A DNA stretch of 64,000 bases from an uncultured Fibrobacteria bacterium. GTDB lineage: Bacteria > Fibrobacterota > Fibrobacteria > UBA11236. The notes beneath the pieces were generated by a model, which saw only the letters and a program-made list of their open reading frames with translations, ran no database searches and was not told the origin of the DNA. Both the position numbers and the translations under genes were made by a program. Positions 32,318 through 45,943 of the stretch are shown here, piece after piece (position 1 is the stretch's first letter; every line of letters starts with the position of its first letter). The stretch is from positions 2,464,001 through 2,528,000 of the forward strand of contig OY970309.1 of the NCBI GenBank assembly GCA_963716395.1. Reading direction: 5' to 3'.

Positions 32318-32367
32318 TTTTCCGCCTTTCACAACCAACGATTCCCGCCCTCAAAATTGGACCCAAC

Positions 32368-32400
32368 AAAAAAGCCCGCTCGGTGGGGAGCGGGCTTTTT
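32368..32400 (-). terminator. Intrinsic terminator (attenuator) upstream of cimA
   Basis: Minus strand AAAAAGCCCGCTC-cccacc-GAGCGGGC-TTTTTT. Confidence 0.88.
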
Positions 32401-32419
32401 CGGGGTCGACGCAATTCCC

Positions 32420-32518
32420 TTAAAGTCCGCTCCCGCAGGGCGCAATAATTCGAATCAGCCCGCCCAAAGACAGACCGATTCCGTTGCACGCGTTGTGAGA
32501 ACGAAGCGTCATAGACAT
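32420..32518 (-). CDS. cimA leader peptide (Ile/Leu control codons)
   Basis: MSMTLRSHNACNGIGLSLGGLIRIIAPCGSGL*; last codons GGGAGCGGACTTT are complementary to the terminator 5' arm; start 32518 or 32512. Confidence 0.75.
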   Translation of the reverse strand: MSMTLRSHNACNGIGLSLGGLIRIIAPCGSGL

Positions 32519-32559
32519 TAAGTTAATCATTTCCGGCCGGTGCGGCGCCAGCATTTCGT

Positions 32560-33591
32560 TCAGGTTTTGATTTCCATCAGCCAGCCGCGGTGATCTTCGC
32601 TTTCACCGTATTGCACAGCCTGCAAGGCCTGATACAGGCGGGTCAAGGTGGGACCGGCCCGGTCCTGGTCGCCGAAGGTGAATACGCGATCGCCGTAATG
32701 CACCGAACGGATGGGAGTAATCACCGCGGCCGTGCCGCAGGCTCCGACTTCGGAAAACTGATCGAGTCGATCCAGCGCGATGGGTTCGCGCCTTACCTTC
32801 AGGCCCATGTCCTGCGCCAGCACTTGCAGGCTGTCATTGGTCACGCTTTGCAGAATCGAATGCGAAGCGGGCGTTTTATATTCGCCCGCGGGCGTGATGC
32901 CGAAGAAGTTCGAAGTTCCGAATTCATCGGCGTATTTGTTTTCCTTGGGATCGGAAAACAGCACGATGGGAAAGCCCTTCTTCTTCGCCAGGGCCGTGGG
33001 CAAGAGGCTGGCGGCGTAATTGCCGGCCATCTTGGCACGCCCCGTGCCGTTGGGGGCGCAGCGATCGTAGTCGAGTATCACCAATGCGTCGACGGGGTGG
33101 AAACCGTCTTTGTAATAGGGACCCACGGGCGTGACCAGCACCGCGAAGGTGTAGGTCGACGAAGGCCGCACGCCCACCATGGGTTCGGTGCCGATGAGAA
33201 AGGGGCGGATGTAAAGGCTGGCGCCGGTGCCGTAAGGCGGCACGAAATCGAGATTGCACTCCACGGCCAAGCGGCAGGCCGAGACGAAGATCTCGGCGTC
33301 GGGTGCCTGCATGCACAGCCGTTCGGCCGACAGGCGCATACGCTCGGCGTTGCGGTCGGGACGGAACATGACCACACGGCCGTCGCGCGTGCGGAAGGCT
33401 TTCAGGCCTTCGAAAATCGCCTGGCCGTAATGCAGGCAATTGGCCGCAATGTGCATCGGCAGCACCGGATCGGTTTTAAAAACCGGCGTTCCCCATTTCC
33501 CGTCGGCGAAATCGCATTGCACATGGCCATGGGTAGGCAGGTATTGGAATCCCAGGTTTTTCCAGTCCAAGGTTGTGGTGGCGGTCGGCAT
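32560..33591 (-). CDS. ilvE: Branched-chain amino acid aminotransferase
   Basis: LHYGQAIFEGLKA, LYIRP, PLP lysine in AKMAGNYAAS, CGTAAVITP; start could be 33603. Confidence 0.95.
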   Translation of the reverse strand: MPTATTTLDWKNLGFQYLPTHGHVQCDFADGKWGTPVFKTDPVLPMHIAANCLHYGQAIFEGLKAFRTRDGRVVMFRPDRNAERMRLSAERLCMQAPDAEIFVSACRLAVECNLDFVPPYGTGASLYIRPFLIGTEPMVGVRPSSTYTFAVLVTPVGPYYKDGFHPVDALVILDYDRCAPNGTGRAKMAGNYAASLLPTALAKKKGFPIVLFSDPKENKYADEFGTSNFFGITPAGEYKTPASHSILQSVTNDSLQVLAQDMGLKVRREPIALDRLDQFSEVGACGTAAVITPIRSVHYGDRVFTFGDQDRAGPTLTRLYQALQAVQYGESEDHRGWLMEIKT

Positions 33592-33729: not shown

Positions 33730-36471
33730 TCAGGCGTTCATCAAGGCCAGCAATTCGCCGATGAAAGCCGGCTCCTGCGAACGCGGGCGCTGCCGTTTGG
33801 GCCGCGCGGATTTATGGGTAGAGCCGTGGGCCGAACCCGTCATGCCGAGATCGGCCAGCAGCCGGGAGAGAATGCCGTCGGGCTGATATTCGGCGGCGCG
33901 CAGGCGGCCGCGCGCGGCCAGGTCTTTGCGCCGTTCGGGATTTTGCAGCAATTCAATCGCCCACCGGGCCATGTCTTCGGGGCCGTCGGCCAAGAGACCG
34001 CCCTGCTCCTGATCCAGGATGTCGCGCGGCCCCTTGGTGCGGAAGGCTACCGCGGGCAGGCCGCAGCTCAGGGCTTCGAGCAAAGAGCAGGAGAAGGTGT
34101 CGAACCACGAAGGCAGCAGCAGCAAATCTGCGGCCGAATAGGCCTGCGCCAGCTTTTCCGGATCGAGCCAACCCAGGAAAACGGCTTCGGGCAAGGCTGC
34201 TTTGAGTTCGGCTTCACACGGGCCGGTACCGGCCAGGACCAGGCGCGCCTGGGGAACCTTTTCCCGGATAGTCCGGAAGATTTGCGGCAATTCCAGCACC
34301 CCTTTTTCGCCGCTCAAACGCCCGGCGTACAGCAGCACCGGACTGTCTTCGCTCACCTCCGGGAAGATCTGGGATTTGGAAACGGTGCGCGGCTGGAATC
34401 CCGCGTCGGTCCAATGCGCCGTGAGGAACAACTTGTCCGCCGAGAGGCCCATGGCGGGCGAAGCGAAACTTTCGCGCTGTTCGCTGTTGAGCAGAAACAC
34501 GCCGTCGAACAACTGGTAGAAGGCACGCAGAATGCGGCGCAGCCGATCCTGTTTGCGCGTGTCGAACTTGAGCACGCGGCGCGCGAAATCGAGCCAGTCG
34601 GTATGCACGTAGAAATAAGCCGGTACGGCAAAGGCATGTTTGAGATACAGCGCCAGCAGGCCCATGGGGGCTTCGGTGGAGCAGACGATGCGATCGTAGC
34701 CGCCTTCTTCGAAAATCTTCTTCAACTCCAGCACGTCCGGCAGGCGAATGCTTTGGTCGCGGTAGAACGCGGCGGAAAACTCCGAGAGTGGTTTTTGCAC
34801 CAGCAGATGGTTGCCGCCGGAGCCGGGGCCGCAGGTGAGGAAGTCGATGGGCAAATCGCGGCGGCGGATTTCGGCCAACATGGATTGCAGCACATGCGAG
34901 ACGCCGTTTTTGTCGGTCAGGGTGTCGGTGAGCCACAACACGCGCCGTGGGTGTCGGTGTTGCCCCAGGCGTTCCGCCAGTGCGTTGAAATAGGGCCGTT
35001 TGGCGAACAGGACGTTGGACGAAGCGAAGGAGATGCCGCCCAGCACCAGCGATCCCAGCAGCGGAAAGGGGAGTCCGTCGCTCCATTTCCCCAGATCGAG
35101 GCCGTTCAATTCGCCGCCGGGAGCCTTGGCCTCCGAACCGAACAGGGCGCGGAAATGCACGGGCAACTCCACTTTGTTGATGAGTTCGGGAGTGCCGGGC
35201 CGCCGGCCTTCCTCTTCCATCCGGCGTAACTTACCGGTGACCCGTTCGGCTAACAGGGCCGACAGCGCGTGGAACATGGCCGGCAAGGAAGTGCGCAGGG
35301 TGGCCACCAAATGTTCGGCCGAGACGTTGCGCGCGGCGGCGATGGCGTCCATTTCTTCGAGCACGGGTTTATAATGCGGTTTGGTCAAGAGCGAGACCAG
35401 CAGCCCAGGCCGCCGGCCCTGCAGGCATTCGTGGAAAAGCTCCAGGAAGCGCGAGGTGTATTTGTGCCGCCGCAATTCGAACACTCCGTTGGCGATGCCC
35501 AAGGCCAGGAATTTTTCGCCCGCCGAACCGCGGTGCAGCAAGAGTCGGATGAGCCCGGGATCTTTCATGCGCAGGGCCGCTTGGCAGAAGTAATCGAGCA
35601 GCGCGGCCGTGAGCTTGGCCTCTTCGCAGGGCACGCCGTAGGGGGCCATGCGCGCTTCCCGCAAGGCGCGCAGCGCCAGTTCCGAGCGCTTCTCGCGCGC
35701 CGTGCGCCAGCCGGGCGCATGCAGCCGGGTGCCCGTCGCTCCCGCGAACACGCCGATATGGCAATCCGATCCGCCGGTGATGCTTTTGGCATAGGGTCGG
35801 CGGCAAAAGGCGTCGGCCCGCATTCCCGTACGGCGCGCGGCGGCCTCCACGCCCTCTTCGTCGAGGCTTTGCACCCAGGCGATGGTCAGCAGGTTTTGCC
35901 AGGCGTCGCGCTGGCCGTTCAGACCTTCGAAACGCTCGAAGAGGACGGCGAAGCGATCCATCAATTCCAGCGAAGGCAGGCCGCGCGGGCTGTGGAATTG
36001 CAGCGGATGCGCCAGCACAGTGGGCAGGTCTTCGGCCGCGGCGTATTCCAGAAAGCGGTAAATGTCTTTGCGCAGCCGCACCAGTTTGCTTTCCTGCTCG
36101 GGGGTAAAGCCGAAGGTGAGCACGTGCACGCCCACCGCGAAGTCGGGCAAGGTGCAACTGAATTCGGCCGCGGGCAGAACGTCTTCGCCGCGATCCAGCA
36201 AATCCCAGCAACTGCGGGCATTGTTGTGGTTGGTGATGGTGAGGGCGTCGACGCCGTTGCCCCGCAAGGTGTGTACCAGCTTGTCGGTGGGCAGCCAGGT
36301 TTCGGGCGCGCCCAGAATGCGTCCCAAAGTTTCGTCGGGCACGTCGCTGTTGCGGTCATGGCAATGCAGGTCGATTTTAAAGGCGTCGTCGCCCAATATT
36401 TCCGCCTGCCTTTGCATGAACCCATTCAATTCCCGACGCAGGGTGGCGCGGAAGGTGGAAGCTTCAGACAT
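33730..36471 (-). CDS. PHP phosphoesterase - GT4 glycosyltransferase fusion
   Basis: N-terminal DLHCH, TNHN, AEF, AHP, EGLNG, GGSDCH; C-terminal NGVSH, YAGRLSGEKG, DTFSCSLLEALSCGLP. Confidence 0.85.
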   Translation of the reverse strand: MSEASTFRATLRRELNGFMQRQAEILGDDAFKIDLHCHDRNSDVPDETLGRILGAPETWLPTDKLVHTLRGNGVDALTITNHNNARSCWDLLDRGEDVLPAAEFSCTLPDFAVGVHVLTFGFTPEQESKLVRLRKDIYRFLEYAAAEDLPTVLAHPLQFHSPRGLPSLELMDRFAVLFERFEGLNGQRDAWQNLLTIAWVQSLDEEGVEAAARRTGMRADAFCRRPYAKSITGGSDCHIGVFAGATGTRLHAPGWRTAREKRSELALRALREARMAPYGVPCEEAKLTAALLDYFCQAALRMKDPGLIRLLLHRGSAGEKFLALGIANGVFELRRHKYTSRFLELFHECLQGRRPGLLVSLLTKPHYKPVLEEMDAIAAARNVSAEHLVATLRTSLPAMFHALSALLAERVTGKLRRMEEEGRRPGTPELINKVELPVHFRALFGSEAKAPGGELNGLDLGKWSDGLPFPLLGSLVLGGISFASSNVLFAKRPYFNALAERLGQHRHPRRVLWLTDTLTDKNGVSHVLQSMLAEIRRRDLPIDFLTCGPGSGGNHLLVQKPLSEFSAAFYRDQSIRLPDVLELKKIFEEGGYDRIVCSTEAPMGLLALYLKHAFAVPAYFYVHTDWLDFARRVLKFDTRKQDRLRRILRAFYQLFDGVFLLNSEQRESFASPAMGLSADKLFLTAHWTDAGFQPRTVSKSQIFPEVSEDSPVLLYAGRLSGEKGVLELPQIFRTIREKVPQARLVLAGTGPCEAELKAALPEAVFLGWLDPEKLAQAYSAADLLLLPSWFDTFSCSLLEALSCGLPAVAFRTKGPRDILDQEQGGLLADGPEDMARWAIELLQNPERRKDLAARGRLRAAEYQPDGILSRLLADLGMTGSAHGSTHKSARPKRQRPRSQEPAFIGELLALMNA

Positions 36472-38893
36472 GGGATCTCCTCAGAGGGGAAAGGGTTTCG
36501 GCCGCGGATTTCGGCACGTGGCCATTGCGGGGCGGAGACGATTCTTCCGCCGCGGTGGCCGCGTAAAAGGTCAAGGTTCCCGCATCGCCGGTGAGCGGGA
36601 CGCGGTGGGCGTTGCCTTCCGCGGCTACGGAAGGTCCGGGTTCCAGACCGGCGGCGCGGGGCAGCGAGAAATACAGGGGTGCTTCGTCCTGATGCGCCTT
36701 GCGGCGCAGGTTCCAGGAAAGGGTGGCCGACAACATGCCCTGGCGAAAGGAGTAGTCGACCGTGCCGTGCAAGGTGCGGGCGCCGGTCACTTCGAGGTGC
36801 AGGCCGGGGCGGAACCATTCGGGCGGCGCGGATTCGGCCAATTGTAGCGCGCCGGGCCTTTCGACCACAAGCATGTCGCGCACCAGGTTGAGGAATTCGG
36901 CGGCCGACCAGCCGTGATCGCCGTCGCCCATGCAGCCGCCGAAGAAGCGCGGGTGCATGGCTTCGGGCCAGGTATAGGTGGGCGAGGCGCGACGCAACAG
37001 GGCCGCCAGAATCGCCGACCAGCGCCCATCGCCCAGCGCCATCATGGCGCGCGCCAATTGCGCGGACAGATACGGGTTGAGACCGGTATGCACGATTTTG
37101 TGGAAGAACAGGCCGTCGCGCAAATTATTGGCGGCGAGGTAGTTCACCGTGCCCGGCAACCAGGAAGGATCCGGCGGCAGCACGGCCAGGGGCGAAATGC
37201 CCACGAGGTTGCCGATGGCCGCGGAATCGGGCGCGCGGTAGGGAGAACAGGGCAGGGCGGCGCCGCCGTTTTTCTTCCAGGCCCAATCCATCGAGGCGGC
37301 GATGTCGCCGCGGTAATCCTGCAGCAGATCTTCGACCCAGGCCGTGTCCCGCCCGCGGCCCAACCGGCCCGCGGCCCAACGCAGGGCTTCGAGCCCGGCC
37401 AGGGCCCACAGGTTGTCCCAGTAATAGTGATCGTTGGGGCCGAAATGCTCGGCGGAAAATCCGGGCGGCAACAAGCCGTAATGCGGGGAAGGCACATCAC
37501 GGGTGCGATCGCGCATTTTGGCAATCCACTTGGCGCCTTTGAGCAGGGACGGATACCATTTCTCCAGCCAGGCGGGGTCGCCGCCGCGGCGCACATGCTG
37601 GACCATGGCCCACATGGCTTGGCCGTTGCTGTCCCATTCCCCCTGCTGGCTTTTGAAAAAACCGTCGCCCCCCTGCAGACGTGGGTAACCGGCGAGTTTG
37701 GGCGTGACGCGCCGGTGCCAGCCCAGGTTTTCGAAGGCCAGGGCGATGAAGGAGGCATCGCGAAACCAATGCTTATGGTAGGTAAAGGTTCCGGGTGAAA
37801 AGTGATCACCGTCGTCGAAAACATGCAAATGGCCCTTAACCGCGTAGAAGGCCTCTTCCAGGCGCGCATCCGGAATGCGCAGGCGCAGGCCCGCTTCGCG
37901 GACCTCGCGCAGATGTTCCAGGCGTTCGCTGCGCGCGCCGTCCCACACCGCGGGCGGACGGGCCGAGGGCGCCGCGGGTGACGCGGCCAGAACTCCAAAG
38001 GTATCGTAGGTCTTGGCTTCGCCCGGCCCCAAGGTGAGATCGTATTCGGCCAAGGCGCAAGCGATTCCCGAGCCCGATTTCAGGCTGGTGCGATCGGCGA
38101 TTTGCACGTCGCGCACCAGTGGGTCGCCGTGGTGGCGATCGGAAAGCGTCACCCGGTCGGGTTCTTCGCTCAGCCACAGGCCGGGTTCGTCGTTCACGGT
38201 CCAGAGGCGGTCCTGATAGCGGATGGAATTGATATGTCCGATGGTGAGCGGATTGTAGGGCCGCAGGGTGAGGCCGAAACGCAGCGATAGCGGCGTGCGC
38301 GAACGGTTGGCCAGCAGGTGACGGTAACTCAGAAGTTCCTGCCCGCCCAATGCCAGCGCCAGGGCTTCCGACTTCCATTCCAGATCGGGATGAACGGAAT
38401 AGGCCGTGACTACGCAGGGCAGGTTGCCTTCCAGCAGGCTCTGGTGCACCTGCCCGCGTCGGAACATGCGGGGCGGGAAATAGTTGCGGCCGTCGAACCG
38501 CACATAGGGGAAGACCGACCAACCGTAGGGCCGCAGCGTCAGCATGCCCACCGGATCGACCATGCCTTCCTGGGCGCTGTCCTCCAGGCCTAGGGAGGTC
38601 CAATTGCGGTTGGTGAGGTTGGTTTTGATCAGGTTGATGGCGGTGGGGATGAACTCGTCCCATTCCGGATCGGCTTGGCGTTCCACCCAATGCGGCCACA
38701 CCCAGTCCAGATTGCTCTGGATGGCCATGGCATTGTTCAACCCCGAAAGCACGATGGATAAACCCTGCTCCAGCAATTCCAGCGGAAAAAGGTTGGCCGA
38801 CGGACGTCCCAAATGGGTCAATCCGTGCAGAAAGGGGCTGAGGTGGCGTTTTCCCGTCCACTTGAGATAGGTGTGGAGCAGTTGTTCTAGCAT
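36464..38893 (-). CDS. Six-hairpin (alpha/alpha)6 glycoside hydrolase-like protein
   Basis: WFRDA, GEWDSNGQ, SAEH, YYWDNLW, WPEA, MGDGDHGW; overlaps the start of the GT fusion; start 38893 or 38935. Confidence 0.7.
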   Translation of the reverse strand: MLEQLLHTYLKWTGKRHLSPFLHGLTHLGRPSANLFPLELLEQGLSIVLSGLNNAMAIQSNLDWVWPHWVERQADPEWDEFIPTAINLIKTNLTNRNWTSLGLEDSAQEGMVDPVGMLTLRPYGWSVFPYVRFDGRNYFPPRMFRRGQVHQSLLEGNLPCVVTAYSVHPDLEWKSEALALALGGQELLSYRHLLANRSRTPLSLRFGLTLRPYNPLTIGHINSIRYQDRLWTVNDEPGLWLSEEPDRVTLSDRHHGDPLVRDVQIADRTSLKSGSGIACALAEYDLTLGPGEAKTYDTFGVLAASPAAPSARPPAVWDGARSERLEHLREVREAGLRLRIPDARLEEAFYAVKGHLHVFDDGDHFSPGTFTYHKHWFRDASFIALAFENLGWHRRVTPKLAGYPRLQGGDGFFKSQQGEWDSNGQAMWAMVQHVRRGGDPAWLEKWYPSLLKGAKWIAKMRDRTRDVPSPHYGLLPPGFSAEHFGPNDHYYWDNLWALAGLEALRWAAGRLGRGRDTAWVEDLLQDYRGDIAASMDWAWKKNGGAALPCSPYRAPDSAAIGNLVGISPLAVLPPDPSWLPGTVNYLAANNLRDGLFFHKIVHTGLNPYLSAQLARAMMALGDGRWSAILAALLRRASPTYTWPEAMHPRFFGGCMGDGDHGWSAAEFLNLVRDMLVVERPGALQLAESAPPEWFRPGLHLEVTGARTLHGTVDYSFRQGMLSATLSWNLRRKAHQDEAPLYFSLPRAAGLEPGPSVAAEGNAHRVPLTGDAGTLTFYAATAAEESSPPRNGHVPKSAAETLSPLRRSHV

Positions 38894-39117
38894 GCTGTTG
38901 CCGCCTCGGAGGGACTTGCGGATAACATTTTTCAACAGATTATAAACGCATCCGGGTAGAAATAGAACGCCGAACGGACGAAGAAACGGAACTGAAATGC
39001 AACTGTGACTTTGTAGATACGGAAATAGAGATGTTACGATGGATCCTGCAAGCTACGGCTGCGGTTATCCACGGTCTGTGCGGAGAAAGTTGAAAACACC
39101 GAGATGATGCGCGGCGT

Positions 39118-40557
39118 TCAGGTGAATTTGAGCCGCCGCGCCGCGTACGCGACCATGCGCAACAGCCTCCACCCGTCGCGGAAGCGTGCGATGTTGGGCG
39201 CGCCGTAGCGGCGAGAAAGATAGCGCACGGGAATGTCGACCATTTTCAGATTGAGCTTGGCGGCCCCGAACAGCAAATCGAAATCGCCAAAGGGGTCGAA
39301 GTCTCCGAAATAGGCGCGGCCGCGCGCGATGCGCTCGTAATCGGAGCGCCACAGTGCCTTGGTGCCGCATAAAGTGTCTTTCACCGCCTGTCCCAGCAAA
39401 GAAGAGAAGGCCAGGCTGAAAAATTTGTTGGCCAGAAAATTGAGCGGGCGCATGGCGTTTTTTTCCACGGGATAGACAAGGCGCACGCCGTTGGCGAATT
39501 CGGCGGCGCCGCTTTGCAGCGCCTCACGGAAGCGTGGCAGCATTTCCGCGGCCACGGTCAGATCCCCGTCGAGAATGACGAGCAGATCGCCCCGTGCCGC
39601 GGCGAATCCCGCGCGCACCGCATCGGCTTTGCCGCAGCCCGGTTGCCGCAACAGCCGGCCGGGGAAGCCGGGGCGGGCCGCCAGGCCTTCGACCACGGCC
39701 GCATAGGTGCGGTCGCGCGACGCGCCTTCGACGAAGAGGACTTCGTCGCCGGGGTCGAGATGCTGCAAAGATTCGAACAGGCCGGTCACATGGCCCTCTT
39801 CGTTGCGCACCGGCACGATGACGCTGAGCGTCGCCCGTTCCCGGGGCCGGGGCTGGGACCGGGCGGCCACGAAATTCGTCAACGCCAAGGCATTGCCGGG
39901 TGGAATTTTGGCCAGCCAACGATTGAGCCCGGGCTCCAGTAGGGGAAGGGGAAAGGGGCAGAGTATTTCCGTCCAGCGGCGCAGCGGCTCCCATTGCGAC
40001 AGCCGGAGAAAATGATTCAGGTCCTGGGCCGTAATCCAGTTCTGGGGCGCACGCCGCCGGGCCCAACCCAGGCGTTGGGCCAGCCAGAGCGGTGGTTCCC
40101 ACACGCGGCTGTAGAAATTCGCAAACAGCCGTCCGCGCGGCGTGGCCACGCGTCGCGCTTCGGCAAGCACGGCCTGCACGTCCCATAGATCGCCTACCAA
40201 ATCGGAAAGCGCGACGGCGGCGACGCAGCCGTCGCGAAACGGCAGGGCCTGCGCATCGGCCACCACGATATGTAGTTCAGGATACCGCGCTTTCGCGCTC
40301 CGGGCGGCGGCAAAAGAAAAATCGACGCCCAGGCCGAATCCGGGCCGCAGCGAGGCCAGCAGGGCACCGTCGCCGCACCCCAGTTCGAGCACGCGTTCAC
40401 CGGCGGGTATGAGAAAGCGGTAAACCTCGGCGAGACGGCGATGGTAGGTCCGGCCCGCCCAGGCTTTTCCGCGGCGGCGGTAATTGCTTTCCCAAATCGC
40501 GCGCACCAGGCGACGGTGTTCGGCTTCGGCGGCTTGATAGGCGCTGACGACACTCAT
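39118..40557 (-). CDS. SAM methyltransferase - GT2 (polyprenol-phosphate glycosyltransferase-like) fusion
   Basis: VLELGCGDG; SVIVPVRNEEG, ILDGDLTV, DTLCGTK, DPFGDFDLLFGA; ATGA overlap gives start 40557. Confidence 0.88.
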   Translation of the reverse strand: MSVVSAYQAAEAEHRRLVRAIWESNYRRRGKAWAGRTYHRRLAEVYRFLIPAGERVLELGCGDGALLASLRPGFGLGVDFSFAAARSAKARYPELHIVVADAQALPFRDGCVAAVALSDLVGDLWDVQAVLAEARRVATPRGRLFANFYSRVWEPPLWLAQRLGWARRRAPQNWITAQDLNHFLRLSQWEPLRRWTEILCPFPLPLLEPGLNRWLAKIPPGNALALTNFVAARSQPRPRERATLSVIVPVRNEEGHVTGLFESLQHLDPGDEVLFVEGASRDRTYAAVVEGLAARPGFPGRLLRQPGCGKADAVRAGFAAARGDLLVILDGDLTVAAEMLPRFREALQSGAAEFANGVRLVYPVEKNAMRPLNFLANKFFSLAFSSLLGQAVKDTLCGTKALWRSDYERIARGRAYFGDFDPFGDFDLLFGAAKLNLKMVDIPVRYLSRRYGAPNIARFRDGWRLLRMVAYAARRLKFT

Positions 40558-42203
40558 GGCCCCTTCCCTTCGGCCAAGGAGTCCGCCGGGGAAAGCCGCA
40601 GGTCGAATAGCGCAAAGCGATGCGGCAGGTTTCTCGCACGGTAACGCGCGATGAATTCGGGATCGAAGGCGTCGGCCAGAATCATGCCCGGGGACAATTC
40701 GGCCGTGAAGACCTCGACCGGCCGCACGTGCGACGCCAGGGAATCGAGGCGGGGGGCGCGGCTCCACTTGGGAAAACGGCAAGTAGCATCCCAGATGAAC
40801 CAGTCGCCCCGGCGCGCGGATCGGTCGATGCGTCGACCCAACTCATACCGCAAAATGCCGTGGGCATAACCGCCAGTCAAAAACGTGTCAGCGATCACGC
40901 CTCCCCGGGCGTCCTGATCGGCGGCCAGATGAGCCGCGGCGGTTTTCCAGGGCGAAACGGCCCGCATCAGGGCGAACAGTCGCGGGGATTGCACGGCGAA
41001 CAGGGCGATCAAAACGAAACCGGCCACGACGGTAACGCGCTTGTAACCTAAGGTACGCTCCAGTCGCAAGCAGGCCAGGCCTGCGCCTTCGGCGGCGCCC
41101 ACACACAAGGCCGGCAAGGCCGGCGCGAAACTGCGCGGCGCCGGGTAGCCGAACCAAGTCCAAAGCGCCGCGGGCACCAGGATGAAAAGCAGCCAGACGC
41201 GTGCGATCGCGTCGCCCCGCAGCGTCCGCCAGCCAAGATGCAGGCAGCCCGCCATCAGCACGGAGGCAAACAGGGGATGCTCTTGGCGGAACAGGAAGAT
41301 GGGTAAAAACGCCGGGGATAAGGCCCGTTGCGGACCGCCATGCCACAAAAAAATCTGGTTATACAATTGCGTGAAATACGTTTCCAATTGAAAAGCGATG
41401 GCGGCGCCGGCCTTCGCCTGATGGCGGAAGGCCCAGAGCAGGCCGTATTTCCAAGCCCAACTTAAAGCCTCGAATCCCAGGACCGGCAGTGCCATCCAGA
41501 ACGCGGCGCGGGTTAGCGATCGTACCCGACCGGTCACGGTCGAAACCTCTTTCCAGGTTTCCCCGGCCAACAGGCACCCGACCAGGGACGGCAGCCAGAA
41601 GAGGTTGTAATGCGAGGTGAAGGCTATTCCGGCGGCCAGGCAAAGCGCCGCGCGTTGTCGGGCGGAGCGCGGCGCTGCGCTCCGCCGGGGTAAAAGCCAG
41701 AGGACGACGCACACGGTCAGCATGCTTACGGCCTCGGTCAAGGCGCAGCGCGAATATTGCACGTGCCACAGCGAAATCCCGAGCAAGGCGGCGGCGAAAA
41801 GTCCGCTCCATTTTTCCCCGGCGACCGGAATCCGGAGCATCAGCGCTACCGATGCCAGGCCCGCCACGGCGGAGATGCCTTGCGCCACGGCCACCGAATC
41901 ACCGAACAAAAATGCCCCGACGACGAGCAGGCTTTCATGCAGCGGCCGGGCATGCAGCCACGGGCTGCCGCCAGCCTGCCACAAGGCGTGGGCATCGGCC
42001 AGCAGGGCATGCGCATCGATCCGCCCATGCAGCAATTGCTCCAGCAGGGCGCGCAGTAGGCCGCCGAAGTAGCGGCCGTTGCCGACGAACATAGCTTCGT
42101 CGAAGTAGTAGAGTCCGCGTTGGGGCAGGTTCCAGAAGCGAATCAACGCCGAGAGGGCGATGACCATGCCACCCAGGCCGCGCCACCCGGCGCGGGGGTT
42201 CAT
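40554..42203 (-). CDS. GT-C membrane glycosyltransferase (ArnT/PMT-like)
   Basis: IRFWNL...YYFDEA, ARPLH, HVQYSR...TE; multiple TM helices. Confidence 0.78.
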   Translation of the reverse strand: MNPRAGWRGLGGMVIALSALIRFWNLPQRGLYYFDEAMFVGNGRYFGGLLRALLEQLLHGRIDAHALLADAHALWQAGGSPWLHARPLHESLLVVGAFLFGDSVAVAQGISAVAGLASVALMLRIPVAGEKWSGLFAAALLGISLWHVQYSRCALTEAVSMLTVCVVLWLLPRRSAAPRSARQRAALCLAAGIAFTSHYNLFWLPSLVGCLLAGETWKEVSTVTGRVRSLTRAAFWMALPVLGFEALSWAWKYGLLWAFRHQAKAGAAIAFQLETYFTQLYNQIFLWHGGPQRALSPAFLPIFLFRQEHPLFASVLMAGCLHLGWRTLRGDAIARVWLLFILVPAALWTWFGYPAPRSFAPALPALCVGAAEGAGLACLRLERTLGYKRVTVVAGFVLIALFAVQSPRLFALMRAVSPWKTAAAHLAADQDARGGVIADTFLTGGYAHGILRYELGRRIDRSARRGDWFIWDATCRFPKWSRAPRLDSLASHVRPVEVFTAELSPGMILADAFDPEFIARYRARNLPHRFALFDLRLSPADSLAEGKGP

Positions 42204-43060
42204 GCCGCCCATCCGACGGCGGCCTGCGGACCCGCGAACACCACGTGGCCGTAACGTTTTCCCGGCAGACGAGACGGCAAAACCCCGGGATCGGGCAAAG
42301 GTTCCAGGCGGCGTCGGGGTTCGTCGACCCAGGCGAGTCGAAAGCGCAAATCGATCAAATCAGCGAGTATCGCAACCGGATCTTCGCCGGCTTGGGCCAG
42401 CCCATAGGGCCAGAATTCCAGCAGTCCCTGCAGGCGCGGGTTAGCCTGCAACAACCCGCGCATGCCCCGCAAGGCGCGGCCTTCGCCGCCTTGAATGTCG
42501 AGCTTGACGCAGTCGACGCGGAACTGATCGTGCAGAAACTCGTCCAGCGCCACCATGGAAATGGGTTGGAGCGCAGTTTGGCCGTCCCGGGTTTTTCGCA
42601 CGCGGTGGTCGCCGCTGTTGCAGGCGGAACGTTGTAAATACGCCGGTGCCGTCGCGTCGCCGGCCGCCAAGCCCAAGGCACGCACATTGGCGGCACCGTT
42701 GGCGAGCAGGTTCTCCGTCAGCGCCGCATGGTTCACGGGATCGGCTTCGAAAGCGAAGACGTTTCCGTTGGGGCCGACCCAATCGGAAAAGGCCAGGGTA
42801 TAAAGACCCAGATTGGCCCCGAGGTCCAACGCCGTACCGCCGGCCAGACACATGGGGCGCAGGACTTCGAGCAGAAAAGCATCCGGGGCGAACAGGCGGT
42901 GCGTTTGCAAATACAACCAGCGATCCAGGCAGGGCGCGCGCATGGTCCGGCCGCCGAGGGTGACGGCGAACCGGTGCCAGGGAAAAGGGAGGGCGTTGAC
43001 CCAGGCGCCGGCGCCTGCGACCCAGGGATTTTGCAAAAGATTCTGCCAAAGCGCCTGCAT
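42200..43060 (-). CDS. FkbM-family methyltransferase
   Basis: LDLGANLGLYT, VFAFEADP, VKLDIQGGE, EFWPYGL. Confidence 0.9.
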   Translation of the reverse strand: MQALWQNLLQNPWVAGAGAWVNALPFPWHRFAVTLGGRTMRAPCLDRWLYLQTHRLFAPDAFLLEVLRPMCLAGGTALDLGANLGLYTLAFSDWVGPNGNVFAFEADPVNHAALTENLLANGAANVRALGLAAGDATAPAYLQRSACNSGDHRVRKTRDGQTALQPISMVALDEFLHDQFRVDCVKLDIQGGEGRALRGMRGLLQANPRLQGLLEFWPYGLAQAGEDPVAILADLIDLRFRLAWVDEPRRRLEPLPDPGVLPSRLPGKRYGHVVFAGPQAAVGWAA

Positions 43061-43196
43061 GGGGGCCGAAGCGTCGATGCCGGATTATACCATGCTCCGT
43101 GGTTGCCGCACGATGTAAAGCCACCCGGGCCGAATCCTTGGTCGTGGACCGGGGCGCGGATTCGGCTTCGGATTTCGGCACCCTTCCTCTGGCACC

Positions 43197-43226
43197 TTGA
43201 CAAGCTCTTGCAACGAGAGTGATATT
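43197..43226 (+). promoter_or_regulatory. Promoter TTGACA-N18-GATATT driving a leaderless leader ORF
   Basis: Perfect -35 at 43197-43202; -10-like box at 43221-43226 lies 6 nt before ATG 43233. Confidence 0.6.
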
Positions 43227-43232
43227 GGGTGC

Positions 43233-43343
43233 ATGACTTCGGTCCAAATCCGGTTTTCACTATCCGTGCAGCTTCCGATTGCCGCCCCCAAAAAAGGCCT
43301 GGCTTGGATTGTGCGCGCGCATGCGGGAGAGGGAGCGGGTTAG
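43233..43343 (+). CDS. Putative attenuator leader peptide of the EamA transporter
   Basis: MTSVQIRFSLSVQLPIAAPKKGLAWIVRAHAGEGAG*; final codons AGGGAGCGGGTT pair with GGCCCGCTCCCT of the terminator. Confidence 0.68.
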   Translation: MTSVQIRFSLSVQLPIAAPKKGLAWIVRAHAGEGAG

Positions 43344-43368
43344 CCGGGTCGGATAACCAATCAGGTCG

Positions 43369-43406
43369 AAAAGGCCCGCTCCCTTTCCGGGGGGCGGGCC
43401 TTTTTT
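43369..43406 (+). terminator. Intrinsic terminator (attenuator) 14 nt before the EamA start
   Basis: AAAAGGCCCGCTCCC-tttcc-GGGGGGCGGGCC-TTTTTT. Confidence 0.88.
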
Positions 43407-43420
43407 GTTTGGGGGAAAAA

Positions 43421-44326
43421 ATGTCGGCATCTCGATCTTCGCCCTATGTGGGTTATGGCGCCGCGGTCTTATCTGCCGTGCTCTTCTCCATGAAGGGCAT
43501 CTTCATCAAGCTCGCCTATGCGGCCCAGGCCACGCCCCTGGATTTCGTGGCTTTGCGGTTCGGCTTTGCCATGCCGGTTTTCGCGTGGATCGCCTGGAAA
43601 GGGGGTAATACCGGAGCTACGGCGCCCCGGCCAGCGGCCAAGGATTGGGCCTTGACTGCGCTCGCGGCCCTGTTGGGCTATTACGCCGCCAGCTTCATGG
43701 ATTTCGAGGGCTTGCGTTTTATTTCCGTGGGATTGGAACGCATCATCTTGTACTTGCATCCAACCTTGGTGGTGCTTTTGATCGCCGCCTTGGGGCGCCG
43801 CCGCATTCGCCGCGTCACTTGGGCGGCGCTCGGCTGTTCTTATCTCGGATTGGCCCTGTGCTTCTCGGATGAGATCCGGGTTACGGATCACCACGGAACC
43901 TGGTTGGGAGCGGGGCTGATCCTCGGTTCCGCGGCCTGTTATGCTCTGTTCCTGGTATTGGCCGAAGGACTGATTTCCCGCATCGGGACTCATCGCTTCA
44001 CCGCCACGGGAATGTTGATCGCCACCGTGATTTTCGTGTTTCAAGACTTGGTCCACAACCCCCATTCGTTTTTGGGGTATGGCCCGCGGGTGTACGGATT
44101 GGCCCTGGGCATGGCGGTGGTGGGCACTTTGCTTCCGGTGTATTTGTTCGGCGTCGCGCTGCAAAGGATTGGGGCGTCGCGCCTGTGCATCGCCGGCATG
44201 GTCGGACCCGTTTCCGTGCTTCCCCTGGCGGGATTTTTCCTCGGGGAATCTGCGGGAGTATTGAAATGGGTGGGGTTTGCCTTCACGCTGGTCGGTGGAA
44301 TCATCCTGACCCGGGAAAAAAAATGA
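43421..44326 (+). CDS. DMT/EamA family transporter
   Basis: Ten TM helices; FSMKGIFIKLAY, ALRF, GLRFISVGLERIILYLHP; start MSASRSS lies after the terminator (ORF-track start 43229 rejected). Confidence 0.9.
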   Translation: MSASRSSPYVGYGAAVLSAVLFSMKGIFIKLAYAAQATPLDFVALRFGFAMPVFAWIAWKGGNTGATAPRPAAKDWALTALAALLGYYAASFMDFEGLRFISVGLERIILYLHPTLVVLLIAALGRRRIRRVTWAALGCSYLGLALCFSDEIRVTDHHGTWLGAGLILGSAACYALFLVLAEGLISRIGTHRFTATGMLIATVIFVFQDLVHNPHSFLGYGPRVYGLALGMAVVGTLLPVYLFGVALQRIGASRLCIAGMVGPVSVLPLAGFFLGESAGVLKWVGFAFTLVGGIILTREKK

Positions 44327-44399
44327 ATGGTAGGTCGCGCTTCGCGCCGCTACGCTTCGACCAAGCGTGGGGGCGCGAACCGGCCTCCGCCCGGCTTCC

Positions 44400-45167
44400 T
44401 CAGGAATGACGGCTTTTTTCTTCCGCCAGCATTTCCAGCCAACGCCGCAGTTCCGCCAACTCGAATTGGCCGCGCGGGTTTTCGTCGGGGTGGATCATCA
44501 GCTCGAAGTTTTGCTGCGGATTTTGCGCCACGCGCTGGGCGAACGACTGAAAGGCTGCGGCGGTGAAATGCAGGCTGGCACCCACCCCGAAAAAATGCTC
44601 GTCCGCCCCATGGCGCCGCAGCCAGGCCAAAGTTTGCAAAGCCAGACCAAAGGGGAAATTTTTGCGGGCGGCGTGCCCGGTGCCTTCCCAAGGCACGCGC
44701 AACCTCGGAATGGAAAACTCGCCCTGCAAGCGCCGGCCCACCACCCACAGGCCCGGCAGCACATGCACGTGCTGGTGGCTGTCGAGATGGGAAAGAGTGC
44801 GGCCGCCGAGCCGCTCCCGCAGGAGTTGGATTTGCGCGCGCCATTCCTGGTAGACGGCCGCAGGGGCGATTTTTCCCCGGAGATAGGCGCGCAAAAAGGC
44901 ACGGTAATCGCTGGGTGGTCCGTCGGAAAAGCCCGGGGGCTTGGTCAGGAAGGGGACCTCCAAAAAGGTGAGATGGGCGCCGATGCGCAGCTCCGGCCGC
45001 GCCGCCACGGCGCGCAACCGGGATGCGGTTTGCGCATCGGAAAAAGGCGTGACGCTGATTGAATTGATCAACCCCGCCTCCGCCGCAGCCGTGATGGCGC
45101 GCGAAACGGAAGGCGAAAGGCCGAAGTCGTCGGCATTAACGCGCAAGTTACCCGGAATCGGTATCAT
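44400..45167 (-). CDS. YdjC/ChbG-family carbohydrate deacetylase
   Basis: VNADDFG, GAHL, HLDSHQHVH, ELMIHP; ATGA overlap gives start 45167. Confidence 0.88.
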   Translation of the reverse strand: MIPIPGNLRVNADDFGLSPSVSRAITAAAEAGLINSISVTPFSDAQTASRLRAVAARPELRIGAHLTFLEVPFLTKPPGFSDGPPSDYRAFLRAYLRGKIAPAAVYQEWRAQIQLLRERLGGRTLSHLDSHQHVHVLPGLWVVGRRLQGEFSIPRLRVPWEGTGHAARKNFPFGLALQTLAWLRRHGADEHFFGVGASLHFTAAAFQSFAQRVAQNPQQNFELMIHPDENPRGQFELAELRRWLEMLAEEKSRHS

Positions 45168-45943
45168 GGAGCGGTCGGAATTTCCGCGAGCCTCGGCTGT
45201 TGCAGCAAGGCCTCGATGGCCGTGGCCAGAAATTCTTCGCAACCTCCGGCCGCGGGCAACGGCAGGGTCGGCCAACCGAATTTGAGGCGGTAATCGGGTC
45301 GCGAGAAATAGCGGTCCAGGGCGCACAGGCAAAGTCCTGCCGCCGTGGCTCCGCGCCGGAAGCGGCGCAGCGAGAAACGGGTGGCGAACACCGATGCCAT
45401 GTCCCGTTCCAGTGCGGCTTGCTGCTTGTAGGCATTGCCCCGCAAGGTCACGAGACGGCGGAACCAGGGCTCGGGCAAGAGGTGAATCCACGGCAGCCGC
45501 GCCCAAAGCCCCTGGCCATTATGCTGGTGGCCGCCGAAGGGCCCGGCAAACGGGGCGAAACTGGCGAACAGGTAACCTCCCGGTTTCAGCAGGCGGGCGG
45601 CCCGTTCCAGGGCCGCTTCGGGGCGGACGATGTGCTCCAGCACGTCGCGCATCAAAATCAAGTCATAGGGACCGCCGCTCCAGTCGAAAAAATCGTCCGC
45701 GGAAAGAGCCACGGCGGCGGGCAGGCGGCCGCGGCCGGCGGCGATCATGGTCGGGTCGAGGTCGATGCCGTGCACGGCCCAATCGGGCGCGGCGGCATGC
45801 AAGGCTTGCAGGGTGCCGCCGTAGCCGCAACCCACGTCGAGAACGGCGCCGCACGCCGGCAAGGCGCCGTGACCCCGCAGCCAGGGCAAGAGATGGACGC
45901 GCGCCAAATCGGCCTCGTAGCGGAAATAATCGGTGATGGCCAT
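45164..45943 (-). CDS. Class I SAM-dependent methyltransferase
   Basis: VLDVGCGYGG, YDLILMRDVLEH, PFGGHQH. Confidence 0.88.
   Translation of the reverse strand: MAITDYFRYEADLARVHLLPWLRGHGALPACGAVLDVGCGYGGTLQALHAAAPDWAVHGIDLDPTMIAAGRGRLPAAVALSADDFFDWSGGPYDLILMRDVLEHIVRPEAALERAARLLKPGGYLFASFAPFAGPFGGHQHNGQGLWARLPWIHLLPEPWFRRLVTLRGNAYKQQAALERDMASVFATRFSLRRFRRGATAAGLCLCALDRYFSRPDYRLKFGWPTLPLPAAGGCEEFLATAIEALLQQPRLAEIPTAP

Follow-up and report, generated by a model that had tools for sequence, protein, structure and literature searches.

In the classical leader-peptide attenuators of Enterobacteria (trp, ilv, leu, thr and his), a short open reading frame (ORF) and an antiterminator precede an intrinsic terminator that lies just 5' of the gene. 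The antiterminator strand is masked once a ribosome has reached the last codons of the ORF, and is left accessible by a ribosome that stalls earlier. The TnaC-type arrest peptides are short leader peptides with a single conserved Trp. Attenuators based on an upstream ORF (uORF) also sense translation stress and ribosome-targeting antibiotics; vmlR of Bacillus subtilis (PMC9226507) and the topAI uORF of E. coli (PMC12121999) are reported examples. In mycobacteria, short leaderless ORFs encoding polycysteine are reported to act as attenuators (10.1101/834739). The element that is the subject of this analysis comes from an uncultured Fibrobacteria bacterium (Fibrobacterota; GenBank assembly GCA_963716395.1, contig OY970309.1), from a stretch of 64,000 nucleotides (nt) that was analyzed as a whole and is referred to here as the window; all coordinates are window positions. 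It lies at 43197-43420, directly in front of a gene for an EamA/DMT transporter, and combines a promoter, a 36-codon uORF and a terminator whose 5' arm is complementary to the end of the uORF. The reading that is favored here, with a probability of roughly 0.55, is that of a ribosome-dependent transcription attenuator operated by a leaderless uORF. Its parts, and the gene that it is proposed to regulate, are as follows.

43197 to 43226, plus strand: sigma-70-type promoter, with the -35 box TTGACA at 43197-43202, a spacer of 18 nt and the -10 box GATATT at 43221-43226
43233 to 43343, plus strand: uORF of 36 codons, its ATG 6 nt after the -10 box and its stop codon TAG at 43341-43343
43326 to 43341, plus strand: 5' strand of the antiterminator, made up of the final five sense codons of the uORF plus the first nucleotide of its stop
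43369 to 43406, plus strand: intrinsic terminator, with four A residues at 43369-43372, arms at 43373-43383 and 43390-43400, and six T residues at 43401-43406
43411 to 43416, plus strand: Shine-Dalgarno-like GGGGGA of the transporter gene
43421 to 44326, plus strand: EamA/DMT transporter gene, 301 amino acids, ATG at 43421-43423

An original prediction, made by reading the letters and a list of ORFs, had already placed the promoter (TTGACA-N18-GATATT, followed 6 nt on by an ATG), the uORF with its peptide and the terminator, 14 nt before the transporter ATG, at these same positions, and all of them are indeed there. It had also named the transporter correctly: the protein matches Pfam EamA (PF00892; E = 9.7e-26) over two stretches, which amount to two EamA repeats. 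The promoter agrees with the sigma-70 consensus at 10 of 12 positions and is the sole site in the window, on either strand, to score at least 10/12; at the looser threshold of 9/12, a scan of 3 kb gave one site against 0.9 expected. The usual distance between a -10 box and the start of transcription would put the first nucleotide of the transcript at or next to the A of the ATG at 43233, and this is the start that we infer. Since the ATG is only 6 nt removed from the -10 box, the uORF, if translated, would be leaderless. Its frame is open from a TTG at 43197 in the ORF list. Codons 25-27 specify Trp, Ile and Val, one of each, with the Trp codon 11 codons before the stop, and no run or cluster of regulatory codons is found anywhere in the 36-codon frame; both points had been read identically before.

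What carries the argument is that the terminator's 5' arm is complementary to the closing codons of the uORF. The 12 bp of pairing that were originally noted (43330-43341 with 43373-43384) are real, and form the core, with 10 Watson-Crick and two G-U pairs, of a helix that extends to 16 bp, in which 43326-43341 pairs with 43373-43388. The 5' arm of the terminator, through to position 43388, is thus common to the two folds. The antiterminator duplex is worth -32.3 kcal/mol. When the 136 nt upstream are shuffled with their dinucleotides preserved, the value is -18.4 ± 2.6 kcal/mol, and not one shuffle (0 of 2000) does as well. Real sequence gives the same answer: only two of 940 windows of 136 nt reach -32.3 kcal/mol, both of them are the locus itself, and the next best comes to -29.9 kcal/mol. 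The terminator hairpin, at -25.9 kcal/mol, is the strongest combination of hairpin and T-run that our own scan of the window yields, and it alone is retained in the centroid structure of the leader. The terminator/antiterminator pair is real and non-random. Other candidates for pairing at the locus did not survive scrutiny: a 1:2 helix was rejected because it does not rise above chance in 2000 shuffles, and a perfect 11-nt complement between 43289-43299 and 43397-43407, at the base of the terminator, is of unexceptional energy (294 of 2000 shuffles are as good). The motif of the arms is not over-represented within the window, and an origin as a repeat element was set aside.

The order in which these folds become available was followed by growing the transcript from 43233 and taking the minimum free energy (MFE) structure at successive 3' ends. 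RNA that ends at or before 43372 forms a long and loose hairpin; with the 3' end at 43384-43390 and no ribosome present, the antiterminator is the MFE structure; from 43400 on, the terminator takes over. A translating ribosome can be represented by masking its footprint on a transcript that ends at 43392; counted from the first base of the P site, the mask extends over 12 nt on the 5' side and 15 nt on the 3' side. For a ribosome whose A site is at one of codons 1-27, all 16 antiterminator pairs form at 23 of these codons, and 12 to 15 pairs at codons 9, 10 and 24. At codons 28, 29, 30 and 31 the number drops to 15, 12, 9 and 3, respectively, and from codon 32 to the stop codon it is zero. In this model of nascent RNA, a ribosome on the closing codons of the uORF abolishes the antiterminator, as had originally been proposed; in the full-length leader at equilibrium, the terminator mostly wins.

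These properties suggest how the element might work. Transcription would start at the promoter 43197-43226 and produce an RNA that begins with the leaderless 36-codon uORF. As polymerase advances, the end of the uORF RNA (43326-43341) would anneal to the terminator's 5' arm (43373-43388), and this antiterminator pairing would block the terminator hairpin, allowing the EamA gene to be transcribed. A first ribosome that follows closely, and has come to the last six or so codons or to the stop codon, would cover 43326-43341, in which case the terminator would form and the transcript would end at about 43406. The transporter would be off, then, as long as the ribosome keeps up with the polymerase; a ribosome that lags, stalls or fails to load would turn it on. 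Translation of the uORF, termination, the start of transcription and the trigger are the steps of this scheme that we infer. The leading candidates for the trigger are the Trp, Ile and Val codons, or general translation stress. No helix that enforces termination without translation accompanies the switch and no codon run is present, which argues that what is read is general ribosome progress; and because an anti-antiterminator is missing (see below), an untranslated leader should give read-through, unlike in the trp paradigm. The modelled response to a delay of the first ribosome, whatever its cause, fits general translation stress, as in antibiotic-sensing uORFs. The likeliest specific sensors are W25, I26 and V27, since a stall any further along the uORF would no longer leave the antiterminator wholly free. 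Among them Trp is ranked first, because Trp is invariant in the proteobacterial relatives that are described below.

Another probable attenuator, of the Ile/Leu leader-peptide type, lies on the minus strand of the same window (32339-32560), between ilvE and cimA, the gene for citramalate synthase. Its parts are:

32554 to 32420, minus strand: leader ORF of 44 codons with a Leu/Ile-rich end
32436 to 32422, minus strand: antiterminator strand, able to pair with the terminator's 5' arm
32395 to 32368, minus strand: terminator, followed by six T residues

The complementarity is moderately above chance here (87 of 2000 shuffles are as good), and the leader finds two models of Rfam below threshold: Thr_leader (30.3 bits, E = 7e-4, gathering score 55) and Leu_leader (26.6 bits, E = 0.0017, gathering score 50). 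The ATG of the ORF follows the ilvE stop codon by 5 nt, so that the cimA leader ORF could be translated by re-initiation. When the ribosome mask is applied, an Ile cluster (codons 34-37) marks the furthest point along the ORF at which the antiterminator is still free; W25, I26 and V27 of the EamA uORF hold the same position. That lends these three codons an argument from position, and no more than that. The two terminators are alike, with an alignment score of 38 as against 16.9 ± 2.4 in shuffles (none of 500 as high). Common descent of the two leaders was rejected: upstream of the terminators, the likeness is not clear (42 of 500 shuffles). The cimA leader shows the same attenuator design in use in this organism.

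A conserved uORF leader also precedes EamA homologues in Proteobacteria. A genome scan for such homologues collected 80 loci with 36-42% identity, mostly from Betaproteobacteria; it returned no close relative, and the window's own genome was not among the loci. A DNA profile of 20 aligned leaders (nhmmer) hits 23 of the 80 loci, at E = 1e-36 to 3e-10. These leaders are found some 80-260 nt upstream of the EamA homologue (loci within L002-L079; for example, L009:3719-3943), and their bearers are Nitrosomonadales, Gallionellaceae, Nitrosomonas, Methylophilaceae, Sulfuricellaceae, Thiobacillus, Sterolibacterium and Methylobacter. Nitrosomonas europaea and Methylobacillus flagellatus are examples of bearers that can be cultured. 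All but one of the 23 loci (the exception is L069) have a uORF of 21-44 codons that starts with ATG. The other two frames of 20 leaders (563 codons) contain 32 and 9 stops, the in-frame number being zero by construction. Trp is the sole invariant residue of the 22 leader peptides; it mostly forms part of an Arg-Leu-Trp motif, which is retained in L076 despite synonymous changes. In 19 of 20 leaders, the uORF ATG follows a TAnnnT box at a distance of 5-10 nt, and 13 of the 20 have a TTG -35 box 16-19 nt further upstream as well, while only 153 of 2955 control ATGs of the same loci (5.2%) have such a -10-like box and 30 (1.0%) have both boxes. The proteobacterial uORFs should therefore be leaderless too.

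The RNA downstream of these uORFs keeps a helix, with compensatory changes in six of its eight pairs. Most of the leaders have a further helix over the ribosome-binding region, not a terminator; a T-run follows the hairpin in six loci, as scored in L020, L034 and L056 and as judged by eye in L022, L026 and L052. Equilibrium folds of seven proteobacterial leaders under the ribosome mask show no clear switch. Searches against Rfam 15 found no family for the leaders, in 16 leader loci at the gathering score and in L009 at E ≤ 5. The only hits in those loci are a c-di-GMP-I riboswitch and a tRNA, elsewhere in two of them; the riboswitch (L035:597-680, minus strand, 70.9 bits) is about 3 kb upstream of a Nitrosomonadales EamA homologue and is unrelated to its leader.

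The window leader resembles these leaders in several ways. A promoter stands just before the uORF ATG, and 13 of 20 proteobacterial leaders share the spacing of the window, with 17-18 nt between the two boxes and 6-10 nt between the -10 box and the ATG; the uORFs are of similar length and have Trp in the second half; hairpins precede the gene, and the gene is of the same transporter family. The Arg-Leu-Trp motif, in contrast, belongs to the proteobacterial leaders alone, and homology is detectable neither in the RNA nor in the peptide. This is one of a number of places at which the attenuator reading of the window has evidence weighing against it, and the comparative evidence may be taken first. 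The proteobacterial DNA profile does not hit the window leader at E ≤ 10, and comparison of its peptide with the leader-peptide profile (hhalign) gives E = 0.8, with Trp as the single aligned column. In a FastTree phylogeny, the window protein and 16 metagenome proteins make up one clade with a support of 100, separate from the remaining 84 rows, nearly all of them proteobacterial. The window EamA thus falls outside the clade of the leader-bearing genes, in a sister clade; possession of the leader accounts for two changes on the tree, a number as low as which is seen in none of 500 shuffles. A hairpin with a T-run occurs within 300 nt upstream in just 11 of the 79 loci with an assignable start, and the notion of the terminator as a family trait was dropped on that count. 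The invariance of Trp, finally, may be partly structural, that is, kept for reasons of the RNA: by eye, stems of differing sequence begin at the invariant Trp codon of the proteobacterial uORFs. RNAalifold, run on the 3' halves of 18 of the 22 uORFs (without L022, L052, L056 and L079), places no pair at that codon.

As neither the DNA nor the peptide profile gives a match, the window leader is counted as an analogue of the proteobacterial leaders and not as a member of their family, although it is possibly a very distant relative. A bolder proposal is that the window leader and the 23 proteobacterial leaders constitute one old, undescribed class of leaderless uORF switches with a Trp codon, dedicated to one EamA subfamily and diverged beyond recognition across two phyla. 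We hold this to be unlikely. If it were true, the orphan EamA subfamily would be one of tryptophan-linked transporters (of Trp, indole or a related compound), read out through pausing at a single Trp codon.

The remaining counterevidence comes from the locus itself. At equilibrium, the terminator is the MFE structure of the full-length leader with a ribosome anywhere from K20 to H30, and the antiterminator is favored solely with a ribosome at codons 10 and 16. Since the terminator wins in most of these equilibrium states, the switch would have to act kinetically, by kinetic trapping; known attenuators likewise switch kinetically. A search for an anti-antiterminator came to nothing: the best pairing of 43326-43352 with the RNA upstream of it yields -23.0 kcal/mol, as against -27.4 ± 3.3 kcal/mol in shuffles, 1865 of 2000 of which are as good. 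The leader as a whole is not exceptionally stable (z = -1.29, with 19 of 200 shuffles equally stable), and a simple terminator scan returned four hits, among which the hairpin at 43369-43406 is absent. The -10 box matches at four of six positions, starts with G, is separated from the -35 box by 18 nt and fails the stricter TAnnnT test. No Shine-Dalgarno sequence precedes the uORF, so that its translation rests on the leaderless start proposed above. Its G+C content at third codon positions is 0.59 in comparison with 0.73-0.82 in genes, and a coding bias is thus lacking; its peptide has no Pfam family (the sole hit is at E = 0.13) and no short homologue in an exhaustive search at E ≤ 0.001, the two hits of which lie inside long proteins of 436 and 6457 amino acids. 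A conserved small protein was rejected on these last two results. An open frame of 36 codons is unremarkable in DNA of 62.6% G+C; our own estimate is about one chance in three.

A different operator of the same RNA switch must also be weighed. The terminator and antiterminator could be worked without any ribosome, by a riboswitch aptamer in the 93 nt up to 43325 or by a protein or small RNA that binds the G-rich segment 43326-43341, with the uORF incidental. The antiterminator is the sole statistically exceptional feature of the RNA, and it needs no ribosome; the uORF is without Shine-Dalgarno sequence, coding bias and homologues, and frames of its length are not rare. Transporter genes are, moreover, frequent targets of riboswitches. 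Against this, Rfam has nothing to offer at the gathering score for the whole window, and for the locus itself only sub-threshold, terminator-like hits at E ≤ 10; the best hit of a leader model covers the terminator only, with 21.1 bits compared with a gathering score of 55. A known RNA family (Rfam release 15) for the leader was therefore rejected, no match reaching threshold. No tRNA genes were found, which led us to reject a tRNA or T-box reading. The part of the leader in which an aptamer would have to reside has no unusual structure. An incidental uORF also leaves it to chance that the ATG is placed exactly at the expected leaderless start and the stop codon exactly at the edge of the antiterminator strand, that the position of the stop recurs in the cimA leader, and that the distance from promoter to ATG recurs in the proteobacterial leaders. 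Operation by a ligand or another binder is consequently judged rather improbable, if still worth keeping in mind.

How, then, does the favored attenuator compare with the systems described at the outset? It shares with the classical attenuators the short ORF, the antiterminator and the intrinsic terminator just 5' of the gene. The original prediction had gone further and called this trp/ilv-type geometry. That holds insofar as the stop codon borders the antiterminator strand on its 3' side and a modelled ribosome at that site hides it, an earlier stall freeing it: the likeness here is one of geometry, as seen in the model. It does not hold for the two features that define the classical type, namely the codon run and the anti-antiterminator, the latter being absent at any level above chance. 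Further differences are the missing Shine-Dalgarno sequence and the nature of the regulated gene, which encodes a transporter and does not belong to a biosynthetic operon. On the favored reading, the element is a leader-peptide attenuator in function, minus those two defining features. The stress-sensing uORF attenuators come closer: they, too, have no run of codons for an amino acid, a stall across a broad stretch of the uORF leads to read-through, and the gene in the window could code for an exporter of the drug/metabolite superfamily. In contrast to theirs, the start in the window is predicted to be leaderless. Control of topAI works through Rho and not through an intrinsic terminator.

With the mycobacterial leaderless ORFs, the element would have in common a short sensory ORF at the 5' end of the transcript and an RNA structure that is chosen by the position of the ribosome. 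The mycobacterial ORFs differ in having runs of Cys codons and a translational output, the freeing of a ribosome-binding site, and they occur in another phylum; the element in the window has no run, and its output would be a terminator. The similarity to TnaC is that of one Trp residue some 10-13 residues before the end of the leader peptide. A stall at the stop codon of the window uORF is modelled to favor termination, not read-through. The distance from Trp to stop in the relatives varies (3, 9, 10, 12, 13, 14 or 16 residues), and this variation speaks against a fixed-geometry arrest of the TnaC kind. The logic of the element in the window is nearest to that of the translation-stress uORF attenuators, and its predicted start is nearest to that of the leaderless sensory ORFs in mycobacteria.

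The transporter gene itself bears on the question of whether its transcripts have to pass the terminator. The public protein begins at Met24, 23 codons further on, and has 278 amino acids. Residues 11-23, upstream of Met24, are conserved in 21 homologues, and F22 and S23 are invariant in the alignment of 22 sequences; the start at 43421, and with it the length of 301 amino acids, therefore stands. With a conserved long N-terminus and only 14 nt between the T-run and the ATG, there is no room for a promoter of the gene's own, and transporter transcripts must consequently cross the terminator. The transporter frame remains open upstream, across the terminator and the leader, to give an ORF of 365 amino acids from a GTG at 43229 (43229-44326). 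Similar long N-terminal extensions are borne by the homologues P0010 and P0017; these are probably over-called starts.

The lack of space for another promoter also affects a further alternative, in which promoter and terminator bound a separate short transcript (about 174 nt) that acts as a small RNA or encodes the 36-residue protein, and the transporter is expressed by constitutive leakage through the terminator alone. Promoter and terminator are both strong, and attenuator-derived RNAs that act in trans are reported (PMC6614838). A strong constitutive block would be an odd route to expression of a gene that has no room for its own promoter, however; the peptide has no relatives, and the complementarity of 16 bp to the terminator arm is left unexplained. 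This explanation has little to commend it.

The genes on either side of the element and the transporter are arranged as follows.

42200 to 43060, minus strand: FkbM-type methyltransferase gene
360 nt: spacer between the divergent FkbM-type methyltransferase gene (minus strand) and EamA transporter gene (plus strand)
44400 to 45506, minus strand: YdjC-family gene, convergent with the EamA transporter gene

The FkbM-type methyltransferase gene has an extended -10 box, TGGTATAAT, at 43084-43092 on the minus strand, 23 nt 5' of its ATG. Its 5' leader is short and lacks a Shine-Dalgarno sequence, and its promoter is the divergent partner of the uORF promoter. The presence of the TGGTATAAT box implies that sigma-70-type promoters are used in this genome, whose placement in the phylum agrees with Ffh: its relatives, with 76-85% identity, bear the names Fibrobacteres or Fibrobacterota. 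Between the divergent promoters there is a perfect inverted repeat of 9 nt (43129-43166; GCCGAATCC, 20 nt, GGATTCGGC), which could be an operator or a hairpin in the RNA of the minus-strand leader.

The convergent arrangement on the other side raises the last alternative. Our own scan found no terminator in the 73 nt (44327-44399) that separate the transporter and YdjC genes, so that minus-strand transcripts may continue antisense to the transporter gene up to the hairpin at 43400-43369. The hairpin might then be mainly a two-way insulator that halts antisense transcripts of the YdjC operon before they enter the FkbM operon, its complementarity to the uORF serving no function. The flanking A4 and T6 are suited to such a role, and on the minus strand the hairpin scores -21.0 kcal/mol with a TTTT tail. 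That tail is a run of only four T residues, and the plus-strand transcripts of the transporter gene would still face the stronger orientation of the hairpin. Nor does an insulator account for the arrangement of promoter, ATG, stop codon and antiterminator, or for the statistics of the pairing. Insulation as the main function of the hairpin appears very improbable.

The transporter and its neighbors form part of a glycosylation-type run of genes (33730-45943), which includes those for a GT4 glycosyltransferase (913 amino acids), a methyltransferase-GT2 fusion protein (554 amino acids), the FkbM methyltransferase, the YdjC-family protein and a class-12 methyltransferase, as well as for two proteins of 823 and 552 amino acids without family. 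The role of the transporter could thus lie with this cluster and not with amino acids. Its nearest homologues, of 46-54% identity, come from metagenomes only (P0002-P0017, n = 16), and no solved structure is related to it by sequence at E ≤ 0.01. The neighbors of the homologues (the 42 closest flanking ORFs of the first 40 loci) offer no hint of the substrate: they are diverse, with a HerA-like helicase, a zinc-type dehydrogenase, a PrmC-like methyltransferase, HPP, an aldehyde dehydrogenase and SDR among others.

The original prediction had further stated that no attenuator of this kind was known to be described for EamA genes in this lineage. Full-text searches of the literature outside subscription journals bear this out: they turned up no such description, and no paper that joins leader-peptide attenuation with Fibrobacter, or EamA/DMT transporters with a bacterial uORF or terminator. 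As far as these searches go, the uORF leader of the proteobacterial EamA genes is undescribed as well. Comparative studies of attenuators in Bacteroidetes have reportedly been made, such as that of Lopatovskaya et al. (2010; cited in PMC4833913); to our knowledge, the regulatory RNA of Fibrobacterota is almost unexplored.

The occurrence of two attenuators of one design within 64 kb suggests that Fibrobacterota make regular use of termination control that is read by the ribosome. The predicted leaderless start of the window uORF, together with its recurrence in 19 of 20 proteobacterial leaders, would extend leaderless sensory ORFs past the Actinobacteria, and to intrinsic terminators as their output. 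For an EamA subfamily that has neither a structural match nor informative neighbors, the invariant Trp of the proteobacterial relatives provides a concrete lead to function.

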